A stretch of 64,000 nucleotides of DNA from an uncultured Gammaproteobacteria bacterium (lineage in GTDB: Bacteria; Pseudomonadota; Gammaproteobacteria; UBA9214): contig CAVYZN010000009.1 of NCBI GenBank assembly GCA_963773065.1, forward strand, positions 1 to 64,000, in the 5' to 3' direction. The translations under genes were made by a program, and so were the position numbers. Below are positions 43,842 to 61,791 of this stretch, in pieces. Every line of letters starts with the position of its first letter. Positions within the stretch are counted from its first letter, which is position 1. The notes beneath the pieces were generated by a model. It ran no database searches, was not told the DNA's origin, and saw nothing but the letters and a program-made list of their open reading frames with translations.

Positions 43842-44768
43842 TTGGAACTGGTTCGCGGCATTCATAACCTGCGTCCCCGCCACCGGGGGTGCGCCGCTAC
43901 CATCGGTAATTTCGATGGCGTGCACCTCGGGCACCAGGCCGTGCTCGGGCAATTGTCGGAACACGCCGAGATGCTGCGCCTGCCGGTAACGGTCATCATG
44001 TTTGAACCACAACCGCGGGAATACTTCACCCCGGAGAGGGTGCCGCCCCGATTAACGCGGTTGAGGGAAAAGGTGGAGGCGCTGCGCCGCTTTGGCGTGG
44101 ACCGGGTGCTTTGTCTGCGTTTTGGCGACTTCCTGGCCAAGCTGTTGCCGGAGGAGTTTATCCGTATCATCCTGCTGGAAGGGCTGGAGGTGAAATATCT
44201 CGTGGTCGGGGATGATTTCCGGTTTGGCAGGGGCCGGGCCGGGAATTTCACACTGCTCGATCGCGCCGGGGCCGCCCATGGATTCTCCGTCGTGAATATG
44301 CATACCTTCAATATCGACGGGAAGCGCGTCAGCAGCACGCGCGTTCGCGAGGCGCTGGGGGCGGGTGACCTGGTGGCGGCGGAATCCCTGCTGGGCCGGC
44401 CCTACCGCATGAGCGGCCGGGTGGCGCATGGCGACAAACGCGGGCGGACGATCGGTTTCCCGACGGCCAATATCTTCCTGCACCGCAGCGCAACACCGGT
44501 GCAGGGCGTGTTCGCGGTGGAATTGTTCGGGGTGGAGGGCGAACCCGTGCGGGGCGTCGCCAATGTCGGAAACCGTCCGACCGTGGACGGCACGCGCAGC
44601 CTGCTGGAAGTTCACCTGTTCGATTTCAACCGGGATATCTACGGGCGCCACGTGCAGGTCGATTTCCTGCACAAGATCAGGGCGGAACGGCGTTTCGAGA
44701 GTATCGATGCCCTGCGGCGGCAGATCGAGGACGATGCGACAAAGGCGCGCGCCTGGTTTAAAGGCTGA
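43842..44768 (+). CDS. ribF: riboflavin kinase / FAD synthetase
   Basis: IGNFDGVHLGH, GDDFRFG, SSTRVR, GRTIGFPTAN. Confidence 0.97.
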   Translation: MELVRGIHNLRPRHRGCAATIGNFDGVHLGHQAVLGQLSEHAEMLRLPVTVIMFEPQPREYFTPERVPPRLTRLREKVEALRRFGVDRVLCLRFGDFLAKLLPEEFIRIILLEGLEVKYLVVGDDFRFGRGRAGNFTLLDRAGAAHGFSVVNMHTFNIDGKRVSSTRVREALGAGDLVAAESLLGRPYRMSGRVAHGDKRGRTIGFPTANIFLHRSATPVQGVFAVELFGVEGEPVRGVANVGNRPTVDGTRSLLEVHLFDFNRDIYGRHVQVDFLHKIRAERRFESIDALRRQIEDDATKARAWFKG

Positions 44769-45247
44769 TTCACCGCAGAGACGCAGAGGACGCCGGGTAT
44801 TTATTAAAATATTAAAGATCCAAAGCACTGAATACCAGGGAGGGTATATATGGGCGATGCAGGTCTGTTAACAGGCCGGATAATTTCAGCGGCTATCGAG
44901 GTACATCGTTATTTAGGCCCTGGATTGCTTGAATCAGCGTATGAGCAATGCCTGTGCTGGGAATTACATCAAAGGGGAATAAATTTTGAGAGACAGGTGG
45001 ATTTACCGATAACTACAAGGGTTACAGAATGGATTCGGTTATCGCTTGATCTCGTCATGACCACGTGGTTGTTGAGTTGAAAGCGGTCAGGCAACTGGAA
45101 AAGATCCACGAAGCACAACTCCTGACCTATCTGAAGTTAACGGGAAAACTTGGTCTTTGTTGAACTTTAATGTCGTGCTTTTGAAAATGGTATTAAACGT
45201 ATTGTTATCGTTTATAACTTCGCGTCCTTCGCGCCTCTGCGGTGAAT
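44768..45247. mobile_element. inverted-repeat-bounded element carrying a GxxExxY gene
   Basis: Arms ATTCACCGCAGAGACGCAGAGGACGC (44768-44793) and GCGTCCTTCGCGCCTCTGCGGTGAAT (45222-45247), 23/26 complementary; AT-rich interior. Confidence 0.75.
44850..45210 (+). pseudogene. GxxExxY protein (PD-(D/E)XK nuclease family), frameshifted
   Basis: [19 protein letters not shown]...; later frames give YRLDLV, VELKAV, HEAQLLTYLKL, LNFN, GIKRIV. Confidence 0.85.
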
Positions 45248-45253
45248 TAATCA

Positions 45254-48101
45254 ATGGCTGATTACAAAAATACCCTGAATCTTCCCAACACGGCTTTCCC
45301 CATGAAGGGCAATCTGCCCCAGCGCGAACCGGAGATACTCCAGCGCTGGGAAGCCATGGACCTCTACGGCACGCTGCGCGAGGCCTGCCGGGGACGCCCG
45401 CGATTCGTGCTGCATGACGGGCCGCCCTACGCCAATGGCGACATCCATATCGGCCATGCCGTCAACAAGGTCCTGAAGGACATCATCGTCAAGAGCAAGA
45501 CCCTGAGCGGGTTCGATGCGCCCTATATTCCCGGTTGGGACTGCCACGGCCTGCCGATCGAACTCAATGTCGAGAAGCAGGCCGGCAAGCCCGGCGTCAA
45601 GGTGGATGCGGCGCAGTTCAGGAAGGCCTGCCGCGAATATGCCAGCCAGCAGGTCGAAGGCCAGCGGCGTGATTTCATTCGCCTGGGGGTGGTGGGCGAT
45701 TGGCGGAATTCCTATCTCACCATGCAGTACCGCATCGAGGCCGATATCATACGCGCGCTGGGCAGGATCGCCGGGAACCGCCACCTCACCAAAGGCTACA
45801 AACCGGTGCACTGGTGCACGGATTGCGGCTCCGCGCTGGCGGAGGCCGAAGTGGAATACGAGGACAAGGATACTTTCGCCATCGATGTCCGCTTCCCGGT
45901 GCTGAATGAGCAGGCGCTGCTCGCGCGCTGTCACCATACCGAGGGACATTGCGGAGAAGGCCCGCTGGCCGTCGTGATCTGGACCACCACACCCTGGACG
46001 CTGCCGGCCAACCGCGCGGTCGCGCTCAATCCGGCGCTGGACTATGTCGTGGTGCAGTGCGATACCGGCCACGGGCAGGAGCGGCTGCTGCTGGCCGATG
46101 CGCTGTTAAAGGACGCCATGGGCCGTTTCAATGCGGAGAAATACCGAGGTGCTGGCCTATTGCAAGGGGAGCGATCTGGAAGGGCTGAAACTCGCGCATC
46201 CGTTCTACCAGCGCGAGGTGCCGGTCATACTCGGCGAACACGTCACCACGGAGGCGGGCACCGGCGCCGTTCATACCGCGCCCGGGCATGGCCAGGAAGA
46301 CTATATCGTCGGACGCCATTACAATCTGGCGGTCGACAATCCGGTCGGCGGCGATGGCCGGTTTCTTCCGGATACCGAACTGTTTGCCGGACAGCATGTC
46401 TTCGTGGCCAACAATTCCGTCATCGAGGTTCTGAAGAGCCGCGCGGCGCTGGTGCATGAAGAGAAGCTGCGGCACAGTTATCCGCACTGCTGGCGGCACA
46501 AGACGCCGATCATCTTCCGCGCCACGCCGCAATGGTTCATCAGCATGGAGCAGAATCATCTGCGCACGGCGGCATTGAGCGAGATCCGGCAGGTCGAATG
46601 GACACCGGAATGGGGGCAGGCGCGCATCGCCGGCATGGTGGAGAATCGCCCGGACTGGTGCATCTCGCGCCAGCGGACCTGGGGTGTGCCGATCCCGCTG
46701 TTCGTGCACAGGGAAAGCGGCGAACTGCACCCGGACAGCGCCAGCCACATCGAGTCCATCGCCCGGCGCGTCGAAGAGCGGGGTATCGAAGCCTGGTATG
46801 AACTGGATCCGGCCGAGCTGCTCGGCGGCGCTGCTCCCGATTATGAAAAGGCGTCCGACACGCTGGATGTCTGGTTCGACTCCGGCGTGACCCACTTTGC
46901 CGTGCTGCGGCAGCGCGAGGATCTGGCGTTTCCGGCCGACCTCTACCTGGAAGGCTCCGACCAGCATCGCGGCTGGTTCCAGTCTTCGCTGCTCACCTCG
47001 GTCGCCATGTGCGGCATGGCGCCCTACAAGGCGGTGCTGACCCATGGCTTTACCGTCGATGCCGGCGGCCAGAAGATGTCCAAATCCCGAGGCAATGTGG
47101 TGGCCCCGCAGAAGGTGGTGAATGCGCTCGGCGCCGATATCCTGCGCCTGTGGGTGGCCGCAACCGACTACCGCGGCGAGATGTCGGTCTCGGACGAGAT
47201 CCTGAAACGCATGGGCGAGGCTTATCGCCGCCTGCGCAACACCGCCCGTTTCCTGCTCGCCAATCTGAACGGTTTCGATCCCGCCGCGGACCTGCTGGAT
47301 CCGCGGCAAATGCTGAGTCTCGACCGCTGGACCGTCGATCGTACCCGCTTGCTGCAGGAACGGGTGCGACAGGCTTATGACGATTATGAATTCCACCGCA
47401 TCTATCAGCTCGTGCACAACTTCTGCACGGTGGATATGGGCAGCTTCTATCTGGATATCATCAAGGACCGGCAGTACACCACGCGTGCCGACGGCATCCC
47501 GCGGCGCTCGGCGCAGACGGCGATGTACCACGTGGTCGAGGCGCTGGTGCGCTGGTTCGCGCCGATCATGAGTTTCACCGCCGAGGAGATCTGGCAGCAC
47601 CTCCCGGGACCGCGCGCCGCATCGGTTTTTCTCTCGACCTGGCATGAGCTGCCGCCGGTCTGCCCTACGGACTCCGAGGTCCGGCGGCACATGGATGCCG
47701 ATTACTGGGACCGGGTCATCGAGGTGCGTGAGGCGGTCAGCAAGGAACTGGAGAAGTTGCGCGTGGGCGGCGGGATCGGTTCCTCGCTCGATGCCGAGGT
47801 GGATCTCTATGCCGATGCGGAAACCGCCGGACTGTTGCGCGCCCTGGAGGACGAGCTGCGCTTCGTGCTGATCACTTCCTATGCCCGCGTCCATGACGCC
47901 GCCGCCCGTCCGGCCGAGGCGGTTGAGGCCGGCGTTCCCGGACGGCAACTGTGGCTACGGGTTGCGCCTTCGGCGCACGCCAAGTGCGTGCGCTGCTGGC
48001 ACCATCGCGAGGACGTGGGTGAGAATCCGCAACATCCCGAACTCTGCGGCCGTTGCATCGAGAACATCGCGGGCGACGGTGAATTGCGCCGTTACGCCTG
48101 A
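45254..48101 (+). CDS. ileS: isoleucyl-tRNA synthetase (one frameshift near 46140, probable assembly error)
   Basis: [35 protein letters not shown]-terminal zinc finger. Confidence 0.96.
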
Positions 48102-48125
48102 ACCCGTCTTGCGGAGCAATCGAGC

Positions 48126-48602
48126 ATGAAATGGTTCTGGCTTGCCGGGGTGGTGCTGATCCTGGATCAAGGCAGCAAATGGATCGCCGATTCCCTGTTG
48201 GATCCGCACGACTCCATCCCGCTGCTGCCGATCCTTGCCCTGCGCAAGACCTACAATCCGGGCGCGGCCTTCAGCTTTCTGAGCGATGCCGCCGGCTGGC
48301 AGCGTTGGTTCTTCGTCGGGTTGGCGTTAGTGGTTATCGTCGTGCTCGTGGCCTGGCTGCGGCGTCTCCCCCAGGGGCAGGGACGCATGGCGCTTGCGCT
48401 GGCGCTGATACTGGGCGGGGCGGCGGGCAACCTGATCGACCGGTTGCTCTACGGTCATGTCATCGATTTCATCGACCTGTATTACCGCGCCTGGCACTGG
48501 CCGACGTTCAATATCGCCGATTCGGCGATCACGCTCGGCGCCGCGCTGCTGCTGCTCGATGCCTTCCTGGGGCGCAGGGAAGAAACCCCGGGAAAACAAT
48601 GA
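48126..48602 (+). CDS. lspA: lipoprotein signal peptidase
   Basis: DQ.SK, NPGAAFSFL, GA.GNLIDR, VIDF, FNIAD. Confidence 0.97.
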   Translation: MKWFWLAGVVLILDQGSKWIADSLLDPHDSIPLLPILALRKTYNPGAAFSFLSDAAGWQRWFFVGLALVVIVVLVAWLRRLPQGQGRMALALALILGGAAGNLIDRLLYGHVIDFIDLYYRAWHWPTFNIADSAITLGAALLLLDAFLGRREETPGKQ

Positions 48603-48643
48603 GCGATGTGCGCCCTGCAGTGATGACATCCAGGGGGGCAGTT

Positions 48644-49291
48644 TTGACCAGACGTGTGAAATATCCCATCGGCGCGGGCAGCACCGTCACCCTGCATTTC
48701 TCGCTCACGCTGGAAGACGGCACGGTGGCCGAAAGCACCCTTGATGGTGAGCCGCATACCTTCATCATGGGTGACGGGTCGCTGCTGCGCGGTCTGGAAC
48801 TGGCGCTCTACGGCCTGCGTCCGGGCGATACCCAGCGCCTGCTGCTGCACCCCGAACAGACCTTCGGGATGCGCGATCCGGCCAACATTCATCACCTGCC
48901 GCGCGCGGAGTTCGCTGACGACATCACCCTGGAACCGGGCATCATCATCGGCTTCACCGACACCGGCGGCGAGGAGATACCCGGGACCGTTCTGTCCGCG
49001 ACCGAAGCGGCCGTCGAGGTGGACTTCAATCACCCGCTGGCGGGCCATGCCGTCACCTTTGACGTGGAAATCATCGACGTGATCCCCGCGGATATCGATG
49101 ACCGCCGATTGATGTTCACCGCAAAGGCGCAGAGGATCGCAGAGAAAATACGTTGCTTCAAAGTGAAACCATTGATCAACGCGAAAGATTTCTTCAGAAT
49201 CATGGCAAAAGATCCAGTGCGTAAATCGGTTTCTTCATTGAACAGCAATAGTTTTTCTCTGCGTCCTTTGCGTCTTTGCGGTGGATGTTGA
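48644..49291 (+). CDS. fkpB: FKBP-type PPIase SlpA/FkpB (frame runs through the downstream repeat element)
   Basis: [29 protein letters not shown]; lspA-fkpB-ispH synteny. Confidence 0.9.
49115..49285. repeat. gene-less copy of the GxxExxY-type inverted-repeat element
   Basis: TTCACCGCAAAGGCGCAGAGGATCGCAGAGAAAA ... TTTTCTCTGCGTCCTTTGCGTCTTTGCGGTGGA. Confidence 0.8.
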
Positions 49292-49359
49292 ACTTGTTTG
49301 CATGGTGTACCCTACGATCAGTTCATACGCACCTTGCACCCAGGTTGAATCAACCCGCC

Positions 49360-50292
49360 ATGCAAATCCTGTTAGCCAATCCCCGCGGATTCTGCGCCGG
49401 CGTCGACCGCGCGATCGAGATCGTCGAGCGGGCGCTGGAACTGTTCGGCGCGCCGATCTACGTCCGGCATGAAGTGGTGCACAACCGCCATGTCGTGGAA
49501 GGTCTGCGCGCGCGCGGCACGGTGTTCGTCGATGAATTGGACGAGGTGCCGGACGGCGCCACCGTCATCTTCAGCGCCCACGGCGTCTCCCGGGCGGTGC
49601 ATGAGGAGGGGGCGCGTCGCGGCCTGCGCGTGTTCGATGCCACCTGCCCGCTGGTCACCAAGGTGCATCTCGAGGTCAGCCGCCACGCGCGGGAAGGACG
49701 CGAATGTATCCTGATCGGGCACAAGGGACACCCGGAGGTGGAAGGCACCATGGGCCAGTACGATGGCTCCCGCGGCGGCGCCATGTACCTCGTCGAGACA
49801 CCTCATGATGTTGCGCAGCTTGCGGTCAGGCGCCCGGATAACCTGGCGTTCGTCACCCAGACCACCCTCTCGGTCGATGACACGGCGTGCGTGATCGATA
49901 GGCTGCGGGAGCGGTTCCCGCGTATCCAGGGACCGCGCAAGGATGATATCTGCTACGCCACCCAGAACCGGCAGGATGCCGTCAAGGCCCTGGCCGGAAG
50001 ATGTGATGTCTTTCTGGTGGTCGGCTCACCCAACAGCTCCAACTCCAACCGGCTGCGCGAAATCGCGGAAAAGCAGGGCGTGCCGGCTTACCTCGTGGAT
50101 GAGGCGGATGAGATCCGCAGGGAATGGGTGGCGGGCAGGCGGAGCGTCGGCGTCACCGCCGGCGCCTCCGCGCCGCAGGCGCTGGTCAACGGCGTGGTCG
50201 AACGGCTGCGCGCCTGGGGCGGTGAAGTGGTGGTGGAGTCACAGGGCCGGCAGGAGAAGGTGACATTTTCCCTGCCGCGGGCGCTGCAGTAG
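49360..50292 (+). CDS. ispH: 4-hydroxy-3-methylbut-2-enyl diphosphate reductase
   Basis: [40 protein letters not shown]. Confidence 0.97.
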
Positions 50293-50330
50293 GCGCCCCG
50301 GCTAGGCAATATGGCTGACGGCGCGAAAGG

Positions 50331-50750
50331 CTATTTCCAGCAATCGTCTAAGGGCAGGGAGCCACCGCTGATAGTCTTTACTCCCTGTGAAGTCAGGGTA
50401 AAGGTTCCGCACTTGTCTTTTACCTGCGTACCTTTTCGCGCGGCACTGACCGTGAAGCCTATATTGTCCTGAGCGACGATAGTCAAGGTGTAATAATCGG
50501 AAGCGAAGGAAGGAAAGACATCGGCGACGGCGATGTCGGTGCCATCGGCCTTGGTATAAGTGCCTACATCGGAATAATGCCGCTCCATGCGATCCGCCAA
50601 CTGCAGCAGCGCGCTCATGCCATCGGCGCGCCGCGACTTCATGACCTGGTCCCGGTAAGAGGGGTAGCCGATGGCGGCGATAATGCCGATGATCGCCACC
50701 ACGATCATCAGTTCCATCAGGGTAAAACCACGCATCTTGTTCGGCATCAT
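50331..50750 (-). CDS. pilE: type IV minor pilin PilE
   Basis: GFTLMELMIVVAIIGI, PSY..., DKCGTFTL...CW. Confidence 0.9.
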   Translation of the reverse strand: MMPNKMRGFTLMELMIVVAIIGIIAAIGYPSYRDQVMKSRRADGMSALLQLADRMERHYSDVGTYTKADGTDIAVADVFPSFASDYYTLTIVAQDNIGFTVSAARKGTQVKDKCGTFTLTSQGVKTISGGSLPLDDCWK

Positions 50751-50829
50751 GATGTTTCTTCCTGTACCAGTCGTCGTTGCCTCGCGCACGGCCGGGAACG
50801 GCCGGCCGTGCGCGAGGGAGGGTTGCTGT

Positions 50830-53800
50830 CTACTGCCTTATATCGACCCAGTTGCGGCGGCCATAGGCGAAGTTGGGGCCTTTGGCCTCGAGGTCGATCG
50901 TCTCGATGGTCGTCACATCGGCGGGGGTTCCGTCGATCGGTGGACGAATTACCGCTGCCACCGTCATCCAGTTGGCCCTTGTCGATGTCGAGGAGTTTCT
51001 GCTCCGGGACATGGCCGGGGGCATAATCACGGTACTTGTCATACTGGGCCAGGTCCGGATTGTCGGCCAGCAGTTGACCGAGTTCCAGCAGCGCCTGGTT
51101 GATGGCTGCCTCGTCGCTGTAGCGCCTGCGCCGCTTCCAGCGCCTGCAGGGCCGCGGCGTATTGCGTCGACCAGGCTCCAGGATCGGGTCGGTCAGTTTC
51201 TTGTATTCACCGTAGGTCAGGCCGCCGAGCTCGATGTTGACCTTGCCCGCGTAGTTGGGGTCGCCGTAGCACGGGGTGCTGGCGGGGTCCGCATTGCGCA
51301 TTTCATCCACCAGGGCGCTGTAGTGCCAGAACATGGTCACTTCATAGAGCAGGCCGCTCTCATTCGGACCCTTGGTGGTGTCGTCGGCCGTGATGGTCCC
51401 CTTGCTGCTGACCGTAAAGGCCTTGGCAACGGTGCCACCAAAACGGGTTCCCTTGTTGTTCGGCAGGGTGCTTGCAGCCTGCAGCGTGTATTCAGCCGCA
51501 TTGGTGCCGTTGTTGACCTTGAGCAGTTGCACCGTCAGGGCGCCGTTGCGCCAGCGGTAGCCGGACCCCTCCTTGCTGGGCAGCGCGGTGATATGCAGGT
51601 TCTTCGCCGGATCGCGCAGATAGTCCATCGGTGGTACCGATTTCGGATCCACGCCGCCGCAGTTGTTGTAGGTTTTCGGTGTCACCGTACCTGCCTTGAT
51701 CGCGGCCACGGCCGCCTCCGCCCGTGTCAGGGTGGCCCGGTCCGTGTAGCAGATCTTGTCCCGGTAGTCGTGCAATCCCAGCACACACGCCGGCCGCGTG
51801 GCGTGGATGCCCGCCTTGAGTATCGACTGCTGCCCGAAGCCGACGCGCAGCGTCGGTGTCTCGCTGAGCCCGTGCTGGATCGCATAGTCCCCGGTGGGGC
51901 AGGTCGTACTGGGTCTAGCGTAGATATCCGCCAGGGTGAAGACGAGACCGCCGCCATTGACGGTATCAACCAGCGCCGAGGGCGCCTTCCCGCTTTCGAG
52001 CTGGGCGGTGATCATGTCCTCGTAGGCTTTCACCGGCCAGGTGCGGCAGCCGATCTGCAGGATGCCGTCGTTGGAACGGTCCGCATTGGCCAGCACCACG
52101 ATGAACTTCTGGTTCGGATCGAGCGGCGTGGTGCCCCCCAGGGCATAGACCTCGGACTGCATGCTGCCTTCGGCGACGCCGTTGGCGTCGGTCTGCAGGG
52201 TGTCGTAGGCCCGGTTCAGTTCGCCTTCCACGGCCTCGATGCACTTGTCGCCGCTGCTTGTCGACACCGTGACCTGCTTGCTATTGGTGGCGGTGCTGCA
52301 GGGCGCCGAGACCGCTGACGACGGCTTCCAGGCTGGCCAGGCCGCGCCGCGGTTCCAACTGGAACAGATCAACCCAGGTGACGCCGTTGATGGTGTCGTA
52401 CTCGTGCACATGGCCGTCAACGCCGCGGCCCAGCCCGTCGCTGGTCGTGACGTTGTAGCCCTCGCTGTGCTTGCTCACCGCGTTCGGGGCGACGCTCCCG
52501 CCCAGAAAGGCGGAATTCGGGCTGTCCGTTTCCACGTCGATATGGCCGTTGAAGAAGGGCCCGGACGGCGCCGGGAGTGGCGGGAGCGGCAGGATGATGC
52601 CGTTGATGAACATCTTGTCGGTGCCGAGCCTCAAGCGGGCGAAGGTCGGCTGGGCGATATTGCCGACGCCCAGCCCCAGGGCGACCGGCGCCTTGTGGGG
52701 TGCCGCTGACCGTAACGGTATCGCCGTCGTCGAGAACGTTATCGCCGTTCAGGTTGTAGACCACGGTGTTTAGGCGCTCAGTGTGCCATCGCCCCCGGTG
52801 GCATAGTCCAGCGACATGACCCAACTGTCGCCCTCCAGCGTGCGTGTGCCGCAATTGAGACCGGTCGGGTTGTTGCTGACGAACTGCACGCGGCCGGCGC
52901 GCACGAAGGGCGTGCCCAGCAGCCGCTCGCCGCAATTCGGCAGCGCCACCGTCCAGCCCTTGTGCAGGGTGCATGAGGTCGACGGGAACGGGCAGCGGTA
53001 ATTGACCGCCTGCTCGGTGGGGACGATCCGTACGTTTTCCGTCGGACCGCCGCTGATGAACTGCTTGCTGGTTTCGGCCAGCGTCTGGGTCTGCAGGTCA
53101 GAGCTGTCGTAGGGCAGACCGGCCTTGAACGCCGTCACGACTGTTGTGTCGGTCGAAAGATATTCGGAGGTATCGATCCAGATGCCATAGATGGCCTGTT
53201 TCTTGATGAAGTTGCCGGAGCCGGCGGGGTCCTCCCCGTCATTCAGGGCATCCTCGATGCTGAAGACGCTGCCGGTACCGAAATAGACCATGTAGCCCTC
53301 TTCGGTCGGATGTTTAGCCACGGTCGGTGCGTTGCTGATAGGCTGGTCGGGACTGCCATCGAAAACCTTGATGTAGGTACTGGCTCCCGGGTTGGACTGG
53401 TTGATTTCGAACATCCACAGGTCGCCATTGAGGTCGCCGGCGAAGGCCAGATCGGGTATGTCGTCACCATCCGTGCTGAGCAGCGTGGGCGCCGACAGGC
53501 CGCCGAGGCTGCCGCTGACCGTGACGGTATGGACGGTGTTGAAGTCATCCAGGCTGACGAACTTCAGCGTGGTGGGGTGCCCGCTGGCCGTGCTGTAGCC
53601 GTTGCCGGTGATGATGTACCAGTCGGGGTCGGCATTGTCGGTCCCGAGCGGGGCGATCTGCGGTTTGCCGTAGATGTAGCCGAAGCCGTCAGACAAGGTT
53701 TTTTCGAACAGGATCTTGCTGCCGGTGAAGGCCGGGTCGGTCATGTCCAGCGCGAACAGGCCGGCGAAGCCCGGACCGCCCCCGCCGGCGAGGATGGTGT

Positions 53801-54682
53801 GCCAGTTGGCGCCGATTTGCGCGGAACCCTCATTCAATTCACCGCCGAGGTAATAGGTGTGATTGTAGGCCTGATCGCGCGCCGCCAGCAGGCTGAGATT
53901 GCCGATGACCATGGACGGAATATAGGCAAACACCTCGGAGCCGTCCGCCTCGTCGAGGATATGCAACATGCCGTCGTTGGCGGGTGCGGCGATACGCCCG
54001 GCGCGGCTGGCGTTGGCGGTCGCGAAGGCGGTATAACCGGTCACCTTCCCAAGCAGTTCCTTGGGTGGGCCGATATAGACCAGTGAAGTGGTGATGTCGC
54101 CCAGCAGGCTGTAACGGGTGCGGAAGTAGCCGTCGATTGACTCTTTCGTTGGTATGGTCGCCGCGGATGTAATTCAACACGTCACTGCCGTAGGGATCGG
54201 CATTGATGGTCGGGTCCGCCGACGGCCGCCGTCACGGTGGCGGGATCCAGCGCCGTCCTTTGGGTCGGGCTGAGCTTGTCCCAGAAGAAGTTCTTCTGGC
54301 CGGCGTTGTTGGTAATGATATTGCGGTTCTGCCAGTAGTTGGAATCAGCCGCTTCCTCGGCGGCAAACGTGGCGCGCGCCATCCAGTTGCTGCCCGGAGC
54401 CGAAGGGGGATTGGAACCCACCAGCGCATCCGTTGTGCGGGTGCCATCCGCCAGGATGTCGTACTCGATGACATCACCCTGCCATGCCCCGTTCTCGAAC
54501 CATGGCCGGTAGGCTTTGGTGGCGCCCGCGGTGAGATCCCTGTCCTGCATCGCATACTGTCCGATCGTGACCGGAGGCTGGGTTGAAGGATTGAATACCA
54601 CGACGGCAAAGATCAGTGTGCTGATGCCCAGCGCCAGCAGCGCAACGATCTTCAGATGACGGTTTTTGGTTGCTATCTTCAT
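50830..54682 (-). CDS. pilY1: PilY1/PilC adhesin with several frameshifts and a long C-terminal extension
   Basis: WQGDV, ANDGMLH, EVFAYIP, FAGDLNGDLW, MVYFGTG, KGW.VAL across frames; lies between pilX and pilE. Confidence 0.8.
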
Positions 54683-54698
54683 GGTGCTTCTCCAGTGA

Positions 54699-55302
54699 TC
54701 AGGGCGTAGGCGGCAGTGGATCGGTGACGACCACCGACTGCACGATGCGTTTGGCTCCGCGCGAGCTCTCGCTCTGCGCGGTTACCAGAAAAACCTGCAC
54801 GATGGCGCCGGGCAGGGGGTTGATTGTGCCAGTGTACGAGGCATCTTCGCCCTTGCTGTTATCGAGTCCCCGCGTTCTCAATGACATATTCGCCGGTGCC
54901 GTCGTCCGCCGTGCCGTCAGCATTCGTGTCGCTGCCATCGGCGTTCATATCGGGGATCGAAATTTTTTCGCTGGTGAAGGGCCACACGAGGTCCTTCGGC
55001 GTCCCACCGGGGGTCGTATCCACGGTGTAATACTGGTCATCGTCACCCCAGGCGCCAAACGGCACGACCCCTGCTTTGGCGATATCCTCGATATCCTTTT
55101 CGCCTCTTGCCAGCACGTACTCGGCATTGTTGAGGGCGGTCGTCTGGAACTGGGCATTGCCCGACATCAGGTTTTCAAGCCGGGAGAGGTTCATGCCGAA
55201 GACGCCGAGGATGGTCAGGATCAAGAGAAAGATCAGCGCCATGAACAGCGCGGCGCCGTCTTGCCGGTGTGCCGCGGGTAGCTGGTGTCGGGTGTATCGC
55301 AT
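54699..55302 (-). CDS. pilX: minor pilin PilX (frameshifted)
   Basis: QDGAALFMALIFLLILTILG...LENLMSGN...AE. Confidence 0.82.
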
Positions 55303-55316
55303 AATCGGATCTCCGC

Positions 55317-56325
55317 TTAGCGGTTGCGCAGCCTGATGGTCGAGGTATAGAGCTGGCGGCGGTAACCGTCGTTGGGCGTGTAATTCGCGCCGGCCATGGT
55401 GTAGGTTGACTCGTTGGTAAAGCCGGTTTCCGGACACTCGGCGCGCACCAGCAGCCAGATGCGGGCGGCGATGACCTGGCCCCACATGGCATCACCGGCG
55501 GCCGCGGCATCCAGGTAGCTGTCGACGGAATTGTCGTTGTCGGTGTCCACGCCGTACTGGACCTGGAAGTCATCCACGCCGTAGGCGATTTCCTCGGTGG
55601 CCAGTGCCCCGTTCACCAGTGTCATACGATACAGCGACGGGACTTTGCCGGCCGTGGGGCACTTGTCGTTCGTGCTGGCGGCATGAATGAAATAGCCGTG
55701 GGCCACGAGCTCGGCGGTTCTGACCGCCGGGGCGTCGATGAGTCGGGACACGCCCGTCACCCTCGCCATCACGCTGCCCTTGAACAGCCGGCCTTCGAAC
55801 AGCGAGGACCGCAGATAAAACTGGTCATTTTAATAACTTCGGGGTGGTCACGCCACCGACTTCCCAGGGCGCGGCATAGCGCAGCACCAGGATATCCCCC
55901 TTGTGAACCGTATCGGCGGGCAGGCAGGTATAGCCCGTGCGGGTGTCATTCTTGCCGAAGATCCGGTGGGTCAGCATGCGCGCCCAGTTTGACATCCGCA
56001 CAGGTGCCGTCATCGGTGGCCACCTTGTCGCCATTCTGGCCCCGCCCGGTGTGTGATCCTCGATTGCGGTGATATCGGCATTGCCGCCCCAGAAGCCGGC
56101 CCGGCGCACGTCCTGCTCGAGGGTTTCCATGGCATAGCGGCCGTTTTCCTGCAGGCGTCCCAGCGAGTCCTGCACCACGAAGCTTTTCTTGGAGCTGAGA
56201 AAGATTTGCCCTATCCCCGCCAGCAGAATCAGGGTGATGACCAGCGCCACCATCAGTTCAACCAGGCTGAAACCGCGGTTAAGGCTGGGCAGTCTGGATA
56301 GGTTATTTCCGTTGCTCATGTTCAT
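55317..56325 (-). CDS. pilW: minor pilin PilW (frameshifted)
   Basis: GFSLVELMVAL, LQENGRYA, DVRRAGF, QVQYGVDTD, TIRLRNR. Confidence 0.85.
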
Positions 56326-56820
56326 TCCGAGTAGACCAGGCGAAAACAGCGGCGATCGTCTTTACTGAGTGGCGGGCAATTGATGCCGGTAGCGCCAGAG
56401 CGCGCCTCATCCCAGTAGACCGTGATGATATGGGTAAGGCCGTCGCAGCCGTCCGCTGTATCGCATTGCGTGATCTCGCTGGCGCCGCCGGGCAGCCTGT
56501 TCACGCTGTCGCGCCACTCGGTGAGGTCGGTCAGCGCCGTGCCGGTGGCGCTCGTATCCCCCGGGGCATCGGTCAGGCCAATGACATACTCGCCTGCACG
56601 CTGACTCCCTGTGAGGGTTGGCGCGCATGCGGTCGGTGATGTCATAGGCCGCCTGTGTGGCCAGCGTGCGCATGGTGGCCATCTGGTTGGAGCGCAGTCC
56701 CGTGGTCTGCAGCGCGGCCAGTCCCAGCAGGCCGATGGACAGGATCAGCAGGGCGATCAGCACCTCGAGGAGGGTGAAGCCGTGCTGGTTCTTTTCCTGG
56801 ATGTATGTTTTGCCTGGCAT
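56322..56820 (-). CDS. pilV: minor pilin PilV (frameshifted)
   Basis: GFTLLEVLIALLILSIGLLGLAALQ, DRMRAN, ITVYW. Confidence 0.87.
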
Positions 56821-56837
56821 CGTCGTCATATCCCTGT

Positions 56838-57416
56838 TCAACTGCATGCGCACTTGCACGTCGAGACCAGGGTGTGTCCCTGTTGTGTGACTGTCAATCT
56901 TGCGGGCCTGATTTTTCTCGCAGTTCTTGGCCTTGAGCGTGAATTCAACCGTTTTCACCATTTTCATCTGGACAGCTAGTTGGGTGATAGGTGGTGCCAG
57001 ACAGGCCGGTGGGGAGAAAACGCAACGATTGTCGGCATGGTTGTCAAGGTACTCCCCGATGAAAGACCGGTGCGGGTCGCCATGATGCAGTCTTCCGTTT
57101 CGAGACACTTACCCGTGCCGACATCCGGGGCATTATTGAGGTTCAGGTCCGAGAAAACGATCCAGCCGTCCGCCCAGGTGTCCTTGCCGGTGCACGTTGC
57201 CTGGTTACTACTGGCGCAGACCACCGCATTCGTGCCGCGTTTCAGGGCTTCGCTGCGCGCGAGCTGGATGGCGGAGACCAGATCATTGGTCTGACCCGTT
57301 ACGCGGTTGTTCTTGATAAAGTCCTGGAAGGACGGAACGCCCGCGGCCAGCAAGATGGTCAGCACGACGATGGTGATCAGTAATTCCACCAGGGTAAATC
57401 CGGAATCGTTATCCAT
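56838..57416 (-). CDS. fimT: FimT/FimU minor pilin (frameshifted 3' end)
   Basis: GFTLVELLITI, ARSEALKRG, W..GWIVF.D. Confidence 0.82.
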
Positions 57417-57795
57417 AGTCAATGTATTACAAACCTCGCTCATCAATGTCATCCGCTATAAGATAAGCGGCTGATATTACCCGACAGGCGGCCTGTTTGC
57501 CTCGAATTGTGCGCCAGTTTTCCGGCAGTTCTTGCCGGAGAAAGCGCGCGTAGTCTGGCAGACTTTAGAAAACTCTCAAGGTATTCCACTCGTCCGCAGG
57601 GAGAGGGCTGGAGTGGTGAGCCGGTACGGCTGAATCGTGTTAACCCCTGATCCCCCGGCACCGCCCCTGTGTGTAAAGGGGGAGATTCATAACGGCGCCT
57701 CTCGTTATCGGTAGGAAGGCGGCGTGCTTTACCCGATTGCTGCCTGCCCGGGATCGGTTGACAGGTCAGGATGACGTGATGGCGAGTGACTATTA

Positions 57796-58896
57796 ATGAT
57801 GGACTGTATCGTCGTGGGCGGTGGTCTGCTGGGACTGTTGAGCGCGCGAGCCCTAAGCCAGGCCGGGGCCGCGGTCACCCTGCTGGAACGGGGAGAGACC
57901 TGTCGTGAATCCTCCTGGGCCGGCGGGGGGATTTTGTCGCCACTGATTCCCTGGCAATATCCGGATGCGGTCTCGGCGCTGGTTACCTGGAGTCAGCAGG
58001 CCTATCCGGTTTTGGCCGGGGAATTGCAGGTAGAGACCGGCATCGACATCGAATGGGTGCGGAGCGGTCTGCTGATGCTCGATGTCGAGGTTGACCGGAT
58101 GATCGAGGATTGGGCGGAGCGCTATGATTGCCGGCTGCTGGCCCTCGATGGAGTTCAGACAAAATCGCTGGAACCGTGCACTGGCGGACGGTTTCCGGTC
58201 TTCGATCCTCATGTCTGATGTGGGGCAGATACGCAACCCGCGTCTTTGCAAGGCTCTGCGCCTATCCCTGCATCTGCGGGGCGTCGCCATTCACGAGAAC
58301 ACGGCCGTCCTTGGGCTCATCGCGCGGGGTGGGGTGATTCAGGGGGTCAGGACAGACCGGGGGGAATACCACGCTGGACGGGTCGTTATCGCCGCCGGCG
58401 CCTGGAGCGCGCAGTTGCTCAAGGACTCCGGGCTGGAACTTCCCGTCAGCCCGGTGCGCGGCCAGATGATTCAGTTCCGGGCCCCTGCGGATATGCTGAA
58501 GCATATCGTCCTCTATCAGAACCATTATCTTATTCCTCGCCGGGATGGCCTCATCCTGGCCGGCAGCACCGTGGAATACGCCGGTTTTGACAAGTCGACG
58601 ACGCCGGAAGCGCGCGATGAACTGATGCGACGGCAATCGCCCTCGTTCCGGCATTGTCCGATTGCGAGCTTGTCAGGCAGTGGGCCGGTCTGCGACCCGG
58701 ATCGCCGGACGGGGTACCCTTTATCGGTGAGCATCCGCGGATTCAGGGTCTGTTTGTGAATACCGGTCACTTCCGCAACGGCGTGGTGATGGCGCCGGCA
58801 TCGACACGGGTTCTTCTGGACCTGATGCAGAACCAGACCGGTTTTACGGATCCTGCTCCCTATGCGATTGAGAAATATGTGAAATCAAATGCTTGA
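57796..58896 (+). CDS. thiO: glycine oxidase ThiO-like FAD oxidoreductase (frameshifted)
   Basis: VVGGG..G, SSWAGGGILSP, PVRGQM, WAGLRP, GHFRNGV. Confidence 0.85.
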
Positions 58897-58944
58897 AACG
58901 GCCGGGCGTAGACGCTGGGCAGGATTGCGGATTATACTCAGTAC

Positions 58945-59385
58945 GTGGAAAAACACTCTCATAGACAAATGCTTAGCTCACATGATCTGGCGGGGCTGCT
59001 GAAAAGCCATGATATTCTTCCGACCCGCCAACGGGTGATAATCGCGCGCGTGCTGTTTAACCGCGTCCAGCACCTTTCCGCCGATCAGGTAATGCAGTAT
59101 GTGAATGACGGCAGGGACCATGTTTCCAAGGCTACGGTCTATAACACGCTGGGACTGTTTGCGCGCAAGGGGCTGATCCGCGAGGTCATCGTGGACCCCA
59201 CGCGGGTGTTCTATGACCCCAACACGAGCAATCATCACCATTTCTACAACATCGATACCGGCGAACTCAGGGACATCGAGGCTACCGAGCTTGCCATTGA
59301 AGCGCTGCCTGAACTGCCGGAGGGGACGGTAGCCGACGGTGTTGATGTCATTATCCGCCTGCGCAACACCGCACAAACACACTGA
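58945..59385 (+). CDS. Fur-family regulator, Irr-like
   Basis: TRQR, HLSAD, SKATVYNTL, HHHFY; no CxxC. Confidence 0.88.
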   Translation: MEKHSHRQMLSSHDLAGLLKSHDILPTRQRVIIARVLFNRVQHLSADQVMQYVNDGRDHVSKATVYNTLGLFARKGLIREVIVDPTRVFYDPNTSNHHHFYNIDTGELRDIEATELAIEALPELPEGTVADGVDVIIRLRNTAQTH

Positions 59386-59454
59386 GTCTGCATTGGCCGG
59401 CCGTTGCCACTTTTGCTTCCTGTACCATCGTCGTTCTATACTCCCACGCCGCAC

Positions 59455-59530
<76 letters not shown>

Positions 59531-59571
59531 TTCCATCCTTACACGAGTGTATTTTCGAAGCGCCCTCTATA

Positions 59572-59693
59572 GTGTTCATCCATAAACACCGTTCTCACCG
59601 CAGAGACGCAAAGGACGCAGAAGAAATTCTTTAACGGAAACAATTAAACACTTTGCGCCTTTGCGGTGAGTTTATTTCTTTATGGATGAACAC
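59572..59693. mobile_element. MITE with perfect 15-bp TIRs and TA flanks, containing the GxxExxY-type arms
   Basis: TA|GTGTTCATCCATAAA...TTTATGGATGAACAC|TA; inner CTCACCGCAGAGACGCAAAG / CTTTGCGCCTTTGCGGTGAG (59594-59670). Confidence 0.78.
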
Positions 59694-59970
59694 TATTTTG
59701 AAGGACAGGCTGCAAACGAGTTGGCAAAACCTGTATAGTCGTTACCCGGAATTTCTGGTTGCTTGCATACCCGGCATGAGTCTCTGGTCGCGGTCTTTTC
59801 TAAGGGTGTCTTGCCGCGCGGTGATTGGCGAGGCAACCCGTTAAGTGACTTCTCACCATTGGCAAGTCGGGGATCCCTCTCCTCTCTCCCGGCCGTTAAA
59901 CCGTGAAAATCCGATGAGGCTCCTGTGTCGCGGGTTTTTCATTATGGAGAGTGACAGGCACTACCAGACT

Positions 59971-61791
59971 ATGATCGAGAATCTGCGAAATATCGCCATC
60001 ATTGCGCATGTAGATCACGGCAAAACTACCCTCGTTGACCAGCTTCTGCGCCAGTCGGGAACGCTGGATGCACGGGTTGTGATCCCTGACCGGGTGATGG
60101 ATTCCAACGACCTGGAACGGGAACGCGGTATCACCATACTGGCAAAGAACACCGCCATCCGCTGGGGCGAGTACCGGATCAATATCGTTGACACCCCCGG
60201 CCATGCCGATTTCGGCGGCGAGGTGGAACGCGTGCTGTCGATGGTCGATTCGGTGCTGTTGCTGGTGGATGCCGTGGACGGACCCATGCCGCAGACGGGT
60301 TTTGTCACCCGTAAGGCCTTCGCGCAGGGGTTGAAACCGATAGTCGTCATCAACAAGATAGACCGGCCGGGCGCGCGTCCGCACTGGGTGCTCGATCAGA
60401 CCTTTGAGCTCTTCGATCGCCTCGGGGCCACCGATGAGCAGCTCGACTTTCCCGTGGTTTACGCCTCCGCCCTGCTGGGTTATGCCGGCGTCGAAGCGGA
60501 CCGGCTCAGTAACGACATGACGCCGCTGTTCGAGGCCATTGTGCGACATGTCGAACCGCCACAGGTGGACCCGGAAGGCCCGTTCCAGCTGCAGGTGTCT
60601 TCCCTGGACTACAGCAGTTATGTCGGCGTGATCGGTATCGGTCGTATCACCCGCGGCCGCGCAAGGGCCAACATGCCGGTTACCGTCGTGGACCAGAGTG
60701 GCAGGCGGCGCACCGCCCGCATACTGCAGATCCTTGGTTTCCTGGGTCTTGAGCGGGTAGTGGTGCCGGAGGCGCAAGCCGGTGACATTATTGCCTTCAC
60801 CGGTATCGACGGGCTCAAGATATCGGATACCCTCTGCGACCCCTCCAGCGTGGAAGCCTTGCCGCCACTGTCCGTAGATGAACCCACCGTCAGCATGACC
60901 TTCCAGGTCAACAATTCACCCTTCGCGGGACGTGACGGCAAGTACGTCACCTCGCGCAACATCCAGGAACGACTCAATCGCGAGCTGCTGCACAACGTGG
61001 CATTGCGTGTGGAAAACACCGGAGACCCGGACAAGTTCCGGGTGTCCGGGCGGGGTGAGCTGCATCTGGCCATCCTCATCGAGAACATGCGCCGCGAAAG
61101 CTATGAACTCGGTGTTTCCCGGCCCGAGGTCATTATCCGGGAAATCGACGGCGTGAAACAGGAACCCTATGAACAGGTGACCGTTGATGTCGAGGAGACG
61201 CACCAGGGTACCGTGATGGAGAAACTGGGCGCACGCGGCGGTGAACTCACGGATATGATGCCGGATGGCAAGGGCCGGGTGCGGCTGGACTATATCATGC
61301 CATCCCGCGGACTGATCGGCTTTCGCACCGAGTTCCTCACCGGGACGCAGGGCACCGGATTAATCTACAGCGTGTTCTCCCACTACGGTCCCATCAAGCC
61401 GGGTGAATACGGGCAGCGCATCAACGGTGTCCTGATTTCCAACGGTGCCGGGAAGGCGCTGGGCTACGCCCTGTTCAATTTGCAGGAAAGGGGGCGGCTT
61501 TTTATCGGTCCTGGCGACGAGGTCTATGAGGGCGCCATTGTCGGCATCCATTCCCGCGGCAATGATCTGGTGGTCAATCCGCTAAAGGCGAAGCAGTTGA
61601 CCAACATTCGGGCGGCGGGCTCGGATGAAAACATCCTGCTGACGCCGCCCATACGCATGAGCCTGGAGCAGGCGCTGGAATTCATCGACGATGATGAGCT
61701 GGTGGAGGTGACGCCGCACCACATCCGGTTGCGCAAGAAGCAGCTTCTGGAGCATGAGCGCAAACGGGCATCACGCATTGCCTCGGCCTGA
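59971..61791 (+). CDS. typA: translational GTPase TypA/BipA
   Basis: [38 protein letters not shown]. Confidence 0.97.

Follow-up and report, generated by a model that had tools for sequence, protein, structure and literature searches.

GxxExxY nuclease genes enclosed by inverted heptamer arrays form an apparently undescribed cassette system

Results

A GxxExxY gene between inverted heptamer arrays separates ribF and ileS

The window, by which we mean the whole 64,000-nucleotide stretch of DNA analysed here, carries a cassette (44769-45246) between ribF and ileS, in which a GxxExxY gene is enclosed by inverted arms of three phased heptamers each. The features are as follows.

43842-44768, plus strand: ribF, the upstream host gene; its stop codon adjoins the left arm
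44769-44797, plus strand: left arm, terminal TTCAC and three phased heptamers of the GAG type
44838-44844, plus strand: Shine-Dalgarno-like GGGAGGG, conserved in alleles A and B
44850-45217, plus strand: GxxExxY gene, allele A
45218-45246, minus strand: right arm, three heptamers and terminus, beginning immediately past the homologous stop codon
45254-48101, plus strand: ileS, the downstream host gene, with one additional base near 46146 compared with three relatives
49115-49285, no strand: gene-less arm doublet between an fkpB-like and an ispH-like gene
59570-59695, no strand: composite, with an arm doublet (59594-59670) inside a MITE that has the same ends as a 1.69-kb DDE insertion sequence

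The left-arm heptamers occupy 44774-80, 44782-88 and 44791-97, the third being decayed, and the names fkpB and ispH are those that we take to apply from the ORF translations and gene order. An earlier reading of the letters alone (the sequence-only reading) had described an AT-rich insert fitted exactly between the two host genes and bounded by inverted arms, and the description held. The insert starts at the ribF stop (44766-44768) and stops 7 nt before the ileS ATG at 45254, its GC content is 0.44 against 0.63-0.64 in ribF and ileS, and its 26-nt arms (44768-44793 and 45222-45247) are 88% (23/26) complementary. Two pieces of the enclosed gene exceed the TIGR04256 cut-off, and the N-terminal piece also matches PF13366, as expected of the GxxExxY gene that had been proposed. 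The same arm pair does recur twice more in the window without a gene (49117/49283 and 59596/59668, besides 44771/45244); the motif thus occurs six times, in three inverted pairs, against 0.01 expected from 100 shuffles. Other details required correction. The repeat unit, given as about 9 nt, is 7 nt long (CGCRRAG), each arm having three units separated by spacers of 1-2 nt. The repeat family had been called palindromic; a single arm is a direct heptamer array with no palindrome. The 59594-59670 pair, placed directly after a stop codon in an operon, lies within the composite about 40 bp past a tRNA-Thr (59455-59530), and the composite is missing at that place in genomes G001, G002 and G351.

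Neither a sigma-70-like promoter nor a terminator was found in 44600-45400, and the strong Shine-Dalgarno-like site is present in both alleles; the gene is therefore probably expressed by read-through from the host operon. An Rfam search of 44000-60000 returned tRNA as its sole match and no described RNA family.

The window copy of the gene is broken. Compared with intact homologues, it carries about ten deletions of 1-3 nt and zero insertions, all within 45011-45211, and it is 89% identical to the intact alleles of loci L196 and L198. One contig of 308 nt, assembled from an RNA run (depth 2.5) and differing by five substitutions, has the seven bases that are missing in 45011-45064, which does not prove transcription of the gene. 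Decay and assembly error had been left side by side as causes. Given deletions confined to about 200 bp, the RNA-run contig and intact alleles at 89% identity, a local consensus error is, by our own estimate, much the likelier. When the flanking 8 kb were aligned to three relatives, these agreed on one frameshift, in ileS. The ileS copies on contigs C9 and C10 are out of frame at the same place (window 46146), which suggests a systematic sequencing error. None of the sequencing runs checked contained more than 29% of the words. In three DNA runs the gene is uncovered and joints skip it, with unknown letters between; these joints may be gene-less alleles or other doublets and were left out of all counts. 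The bin, with 6.3% contamination, contains another ribF-ileS locus on contig C10, where an intact gene lies in arms.

The protein is a predicted minimal PD-(D/E)XK nuclease

The GxxExxY protein has 126 residues, and across 107 sequences E28, D68, E78 and K80 are invariant and Q92 and Y96 near-invariant. A confident structure model (pLDDT 95.6) comprises a minimal PD-(D/E)XK core and a QxxxY helix, a motif name that we presume to carry over from RecB/Cas4 nucleases. The closest folds are Cas4, lambda exonuclease, Hjc and other PD-(D/E)XK enzymes; all are weak matches (best E 0.001, best Z 7.8), and the top ones all fall in the PD-(D/E)XK superfamily. No solved structure of a relative was found by sequence, and a protein atlas gave no usable match. 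The protein is thus predicted to be a minimal Cas4/lambda-exonuclease-like nuclease. Values of dN/dS lie between 0.05 and 0.17 in the seven computable pairs (about 0.1), and the gene is under purifying selection. The family is large, 21,066 clusters at 50% identity being matched at E <= 0.001, and also includes tandem two-domain proteins of 240-295 residues (P0121-P0134). The function of PF13366 is given as unknown (PMC3424549).

Inverted arms flank GxxExxY genes across phyla

For each locus, the 300 bp before the gene were compared with the 200 bp after it and the best ungapped inverted match was scored, with a cut-off of at least 14. This score was reached by 36/42 family and class loci (partial or short-flank loci excluded, one near-duplicate retained) and by 64/81 loci from cross-phylum and viral scans, a set drawn from the best 80 of 593 matches to a one-subfamily motif with one short locus dropped. 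In total, 100/123 GxxExxY loci from 14 phyla have matched arms, compared with 7/595 random small ORFs, one of these seven being the GxxExxY gene of C10. The flanking-repeat enrichment proposed as a check on the sequence-only reading is therefore evident across taxa. Together, the shuffles and the random-ORF control rule out arms by chance or artefact. Mismatched locus pairs reached the score in 7% and 13%, and a direct-orientation control did so at 22/81 loci, matches that probably stem from nested doublets. The 23 low scorers include 11 with heptamer pairs on both sides and four with none on either side.

Arm type also follows the protein. On a tree of 98 loci from 13 bacterial phyla and one archaeal phylum (a quick tree, with 53/95 forks open), arm class changes 27 times versus 49.5 when shuffled (0/200), and a starred four-phylum clade has one arm type in common. 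The anticipated covariation of arm and protein is thus present, part of it being expected from linkage and descent alone.

On crude ORF calls, the upstream gene is co-oriented in 71/90 loci and the arm lies -4 to +16 nt from its stop in 44/71 of these. Short intergenic gaps together with the need for read-through expression can explain this placement, described earlier as landing just after stop codons. There is no common neighbour gene, the upstream genes being trpE, trpD, metH, nuoE, thyA, sufB and many others. Among 50 scanned, most are unrelated core genes, with trpE found five times and trpD and metH three times each; these three appear to be recurrent landing sites. At L038, L101 and L130, in three phyla, the gene ahead of the cassette is metH or the N-terminal half of it, and the arm types differ.

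Among 301 genomes of the class, at least five arm-pattern matches occur in 20/45 gene-bearing and 15/256 gene-less genomes (odds ratio 12.9; tallied by hand with a pattern of one arm family only, many genomes being fragmented, the G242 search count being a lower bound and the unpublished G063 one gene-less, arm-poor row). Arm abundance is therefore linked to the presence of the gene, as had been suggested. Gene-less arm-rich genomes (15/35 arm-rich genomes have no GxxExxY match) are real exceptions, and in G042 and G124 all listed arms sit on one long contig. Conversely, 25/45 gene-bearing genomes have fewer than five matches to the single arm pattern tested. Contigs C21 and C48 of G313, a genome without a GxxExxY match, carry BIME-like alternating arm arrays with a spacing of about 136 bp.

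Arms are dispersed as gene-less doublets

Scanning the genome of the window (G000) with two mismatches allowed yielded 161 arms, in 57 dispersed inverted pairs resembling the gene flanks and 47 singles. Two pairs exceed 340 bp, both with GxxExxY; the remaining 55 are gene-less. A class of doublets of about 82 bp has extra outer ends that match a 1.69-kb element with DDE_Tnp_1 and DUF772 domains, presumably IS5-like, which is present in three copies.

C9:233141-234835, first copy of the 1.69-kb DDE insertion sequence
C11:250883-252571, second copy
C27:40850-42538, third copy

One MITE without an arm doublet lies at C8:186413-186461. The MITE context accounts for 50/139 strict arms, and 89/139 lie outside it. 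A DDE transposase, matching terminal repeats and target duplication are all missing from the gene-bearing cassette and go only with the outer MITE of the 82-bp class. Tracking of a RAYT or DDE transposase by the repeat family had been named as a result that would speak against a nuclease-driven system. No arm lies within 1.5 kb of any of the 10 Y1/RAYT-type loci of G000, and RAYT as the driver of arms in this genome is accordingly rejected; for the 50 arms in the DDE-matching MITE, the objection does in part apply.

We compared six non-MITE doublets with up to four congeners. The arms stay at orthologous sites while the interiors turn over, and copies absent from these sites look like imprecise deletions. 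The search for target-site duplications at the six sites gave imprecise deletions or one 4-nt microrepeat (relatives 80-90% identical). Most "empty" sites likewise resemble imprecise deletions, and no clean recent insertion was found. The 49115-49285 site is nearly empty in G002 and has different interiors in G001, G004 and G009. No cargo gene recurs in 19 wider doublets from nine genomes and one in G000; they contain nested repeats, host genes or N gaps, with no GxxExxY remnant by tblastn. Doublet interiors (L240-L248; window 49115-49350 in relatives) gather REP-like hairpins and MITEs into nested mosaics. The arms of L010, L016, L215 and L236, like many arms of G000, carry an element of about 48 nt inserted at fixed positions, and a cassette sometimes has it on both sides. 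A 23S_rRNA_IVP four-helix-bundle gene (L192; G000 C6:32342-32693) has inverted arms of its own, built from another 7-nt unit that is remote from the GxxExxY arm type, and is possibly a parallel gene-in-arms system.

Two alleles alternate at an old site

Allele A (window, L196, L198; mostly GAG heptamers) and allele B (C10, G001, L194, L205; AAG heptamers) are 66-71% identical and alternate at ribF-ileS within the genus. Between the window (A) and C10 (B), both flanks are 95-97% identical and the gene 71%; between G001 (B) and L196 (A), ileS is 99% identical and the gene 66%. A and B hosts compared on the ileS side are 98-99% identical. Within B, dS is 0.15-0.32 versus 0.48-0.79 for ileS, so that the alleles are closer than their hosts, and the two copies in G009 have flanks of 89-91% and genes of 70% identity. 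Single contigs may be short-read chimeras, and some metagenome contigs may be chimeric at the arms, but the pattern recurs in several independent pairs. The ileS genes of L137, L196 and L205 are 97-100% identical and their ribF genes 82-94%, and an ileS sweep with a breakpoint at the cassette is possible.

The insert is not a fresh, precise insertion. By eye, 21 of 22 gene-less junctions of the family with both flanks retain a remnant of the last codons of the gene and/or a decayed right arm, the exception (G006) having neither, which argues that the cassette is ancestral to the family, old at this site and repeatedly lost. Thirteen metagenome ribF-ileS junctions contributed six further gene-bearing copies. 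TTATAA from the last codons is conserved in 20/22 gene-less junctions (L138-L161); as a guess, it may have been co-opted as the ileS -10 box.

Dispersed arms can resemble the resident cassette. The left arm of the G001 cassette begins AACGC, and G001 has 59 dispersed AACGC arms, some at orthologous doublets. The remaining four genomes of its genus have 0, 7, 7 and 0 such arms, with none in G000; G001 also retains 217 ACCGC arms. G014 has five arms of its own variant, and G007 its own arm only.

The arms resemble phased protein sites on DNA

In the 61 of 92 elements that could be parsed, the two arms agree at heptamer positions in 96/98/75/94% (shuffled 52/90/46/51%) and in first-spacer length in 100% (shuffled 58%), and the spacer letters agree in only 53/49% (shuffled 44/37%). 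Matching heptamer letters and spacer lengths with barely matching spacer letters are the pattern expected of protein sites, whereas an RNA stem or template-switch correction would not be expected to give it, and we interpret the arms as probable phased protein-binding sites on DNA. Of the arm mismatches in the 92 elements, 99 would be G-U compatible in the coding strand, another 99 in the opposite strand, and 122 are transversions; without strand bias and with unmatched spacers, an RNA stem is rejected. Both arm classes have a sharp outer boundary at YT-CACC. No clear residue separates the three main arm classes, mutual information mostly splitting two subfamilies; position 8, T in 31/39 CAC-GAG and 6/31 CGC sequences, is a weak lead to specificity.

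Discussion

From the observed layout, conservation, allele alternation and arm-allele coupling, we infer binding, cutting and a causal part in repeat spread. Our favoured explanation, to which we give slightly more credence than doubt, is a selfish nuclease-and-repeat system in which the nuclease binds and cuts its own arms and the repair machinery of the host recombines these with one another. The 126-residue enzyme would be made by read-through of the operon, recognise the phased heptamers of its arm type in double-stranded DNA and nick or cut at or near them. Because a hydrolytic nuclease of this size cannot join DNA, host repair must be assumed to join arm to arm by recombination. Such recombination would exchange whole cassettes at occupied sites, replace the interiors of gene-less doublets and rewrite dispersed arms towards the resident type. 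New sites, existing doublets included, would be seeded now and then, and doublets would additionally hitchhike in MITEs of other transposases.

It is rather unlikely, though worth weighing first, that the gene is a passenger or under balanced polymorphism, with a cell-level or addiction-type role (self/non-self cutting, repair or defence). The arms would then be operator or protection sites spread by the IS5-like MITE transposase or host recombination, and alleles would alternate by homologous recombination under frequency-dependent selection. MITE-borne doublets are indeed the most uniform class, the ribF-ileS site is old and often decayed, and recombination tracts would end at a divergent cassette even without a nuclease. 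GxxExxY is also rare on plasmids (7 of 72,556 records) and was found in none of 50,697 phage records and at two loci in IMG/VR. However, 89/139 arms lie outside the MITE, the loci have no neighbour in common, PADLOC returned no defence family besides weak Cas4 scores, and no other gene recurs in the 19 wider doublets, which contain nested repeats or host genes.

Less probable again is a transposon without a transposase, its arms being ends with three binding sites each; the nuclease would excise the arm-bounded unit, which host factors would insert where the DNA is rich in A+T. Tn7 and Mu ends have several binding sites each. Elements of 430-660 bp sit without an intron at dozens of unrelated sites, the YT-CACC boundary is sharp in both arm classes, gene and arm type are common to several phyla, and a single empty MITE fits blunt, duplication-free insertion of a doublet. 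Nevertheless, genomes hold one to five copies, near-identical ones were not seen at separate sites, the doublets are old and occupy orthologous positions throughout the genus, and the element lacks a DDE, HUH or recombinase partner. A cassette acting at the RNA level in the manner of 23S rRNA intervening sequences, with arms pairing in the operon mRNA and the insert looped or cut out, is highly improbable: insert RNA folds shut on the arms (z = -2.98), upstream genes are mostly co-oriented and the 23S_rRNA_IVP gene of G000 likewise has inverted arms, but G-U compatible mismatches are balanced between strands beside the transversions, spacer letters are unmatched and the arms stand in opposite sense in 6/98 elements.

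The selfish nuclease-and-repeat system has a bolder form, which we offer tentatively and would sooner expect to fail than to hold: mobile DNA of a new kind, free of transposase, recombinase and reverse transcriptase, in which a lone Cas4-like nuclease with allele-specific recognition of heptamer arrays moves its own cassette, spreads gene-less doublets and converts repeats throughout the genome to its own type, and rival alleles compete for fixed core-operon sites in bacteria and archaea. The REPtron-like nuclease system first proposed survives in its family-wide gene-in-arms layout, arm-type tracking, genome enrichment and lack of a RAYT link, and gives way on the palindromic arms and the age of the site. 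If true, this reading would supply a function for a very large orphan nuclease family, account for a class of repeats that abounds in many uncultured lineages and show that REPIN-like repeat populations can arise by a second route of unrelated chemistry. Cognate versus non-cognate recognition is directly testable, as one site has two natural alleles whose arm words differ, and an enzyme of 126 residues that reads short phased arrays is a potential tool. The GxxExxY/PF13366 literature searched makes no mention of flanking repeats, nor did the literature searched (10.1101/2021.01.26.428298 included; subscription journals and bioRxiv supplements excluded) describe a gene-in-arms system; the cassette system is real and apparently undescribed.

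Comparison with known systems

IS5-like MITEs carry about a third of the arms in G000, but the arms themselves do not match the IS ends and gene-bearing cassettes lack those ends. Intervening sequences of 23S rRNA carry four-helix-bundle (PF05635) ORFs and resemble the cassette in having a small ORF between inverted arms within a transcribed unit; the cassette differs in its nuclease fold, its position between protein genes and the lack of any sign of RNA-pairing selection. Tn7 has a multi-site end layout. Its TnsA is likewise a PD-(D/E)XK nuclease tied to mobile DNA (PMC3424549), whereas the cassette, at less than 700 bp, has no DDE partner, no targeting proteins and no duplication found. PD-(D/E)XK homing endonucleases such as I-Ssp6803I (PMC3384342) and free-standing or insertion-element endonucleases (PMC11855218) resemble the cassette in being small restriction-fold nucleases inserted at a conserved site, where they are gained, decay and are replaced; the turnover of alleles at ribF-ileS would fit such behaviour. 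Homing endonucleases cut the element-free allele, have one site per family and often lie in an intron or intein, whereas the cassette has no intron or intein, occupies dozens of unrelated sites and has conserved arms with hundreds of gene-less copies.

The closest likeness is to REPIN/RAYT systems, REPtrons and TIRtrons. In these (PMC3116915, PMC5581495, PMC3733652), a low-copy, mainly chromosomal gene has a flanking repeat, further copies of which lie scattered between genes as inverted doublets, the repeat type matches the gene, and repeats may outlast it. The RAYT enzyme is HUH/Y1 and its REP a hairpin, a palindrome with a GTAG or CGTC tag, whereas here the enzyme is PD-(D/E)XK and the arm a direct array of three heptamers. 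Of the trait "low copy, mainly vertical", low copy number and rarity on plasmids apply here, yet allele exchange takes place both at a fixed site and between phyla, with cross-phylum clades. The cassette is REPIN/RAYT-like in effect, not a member.
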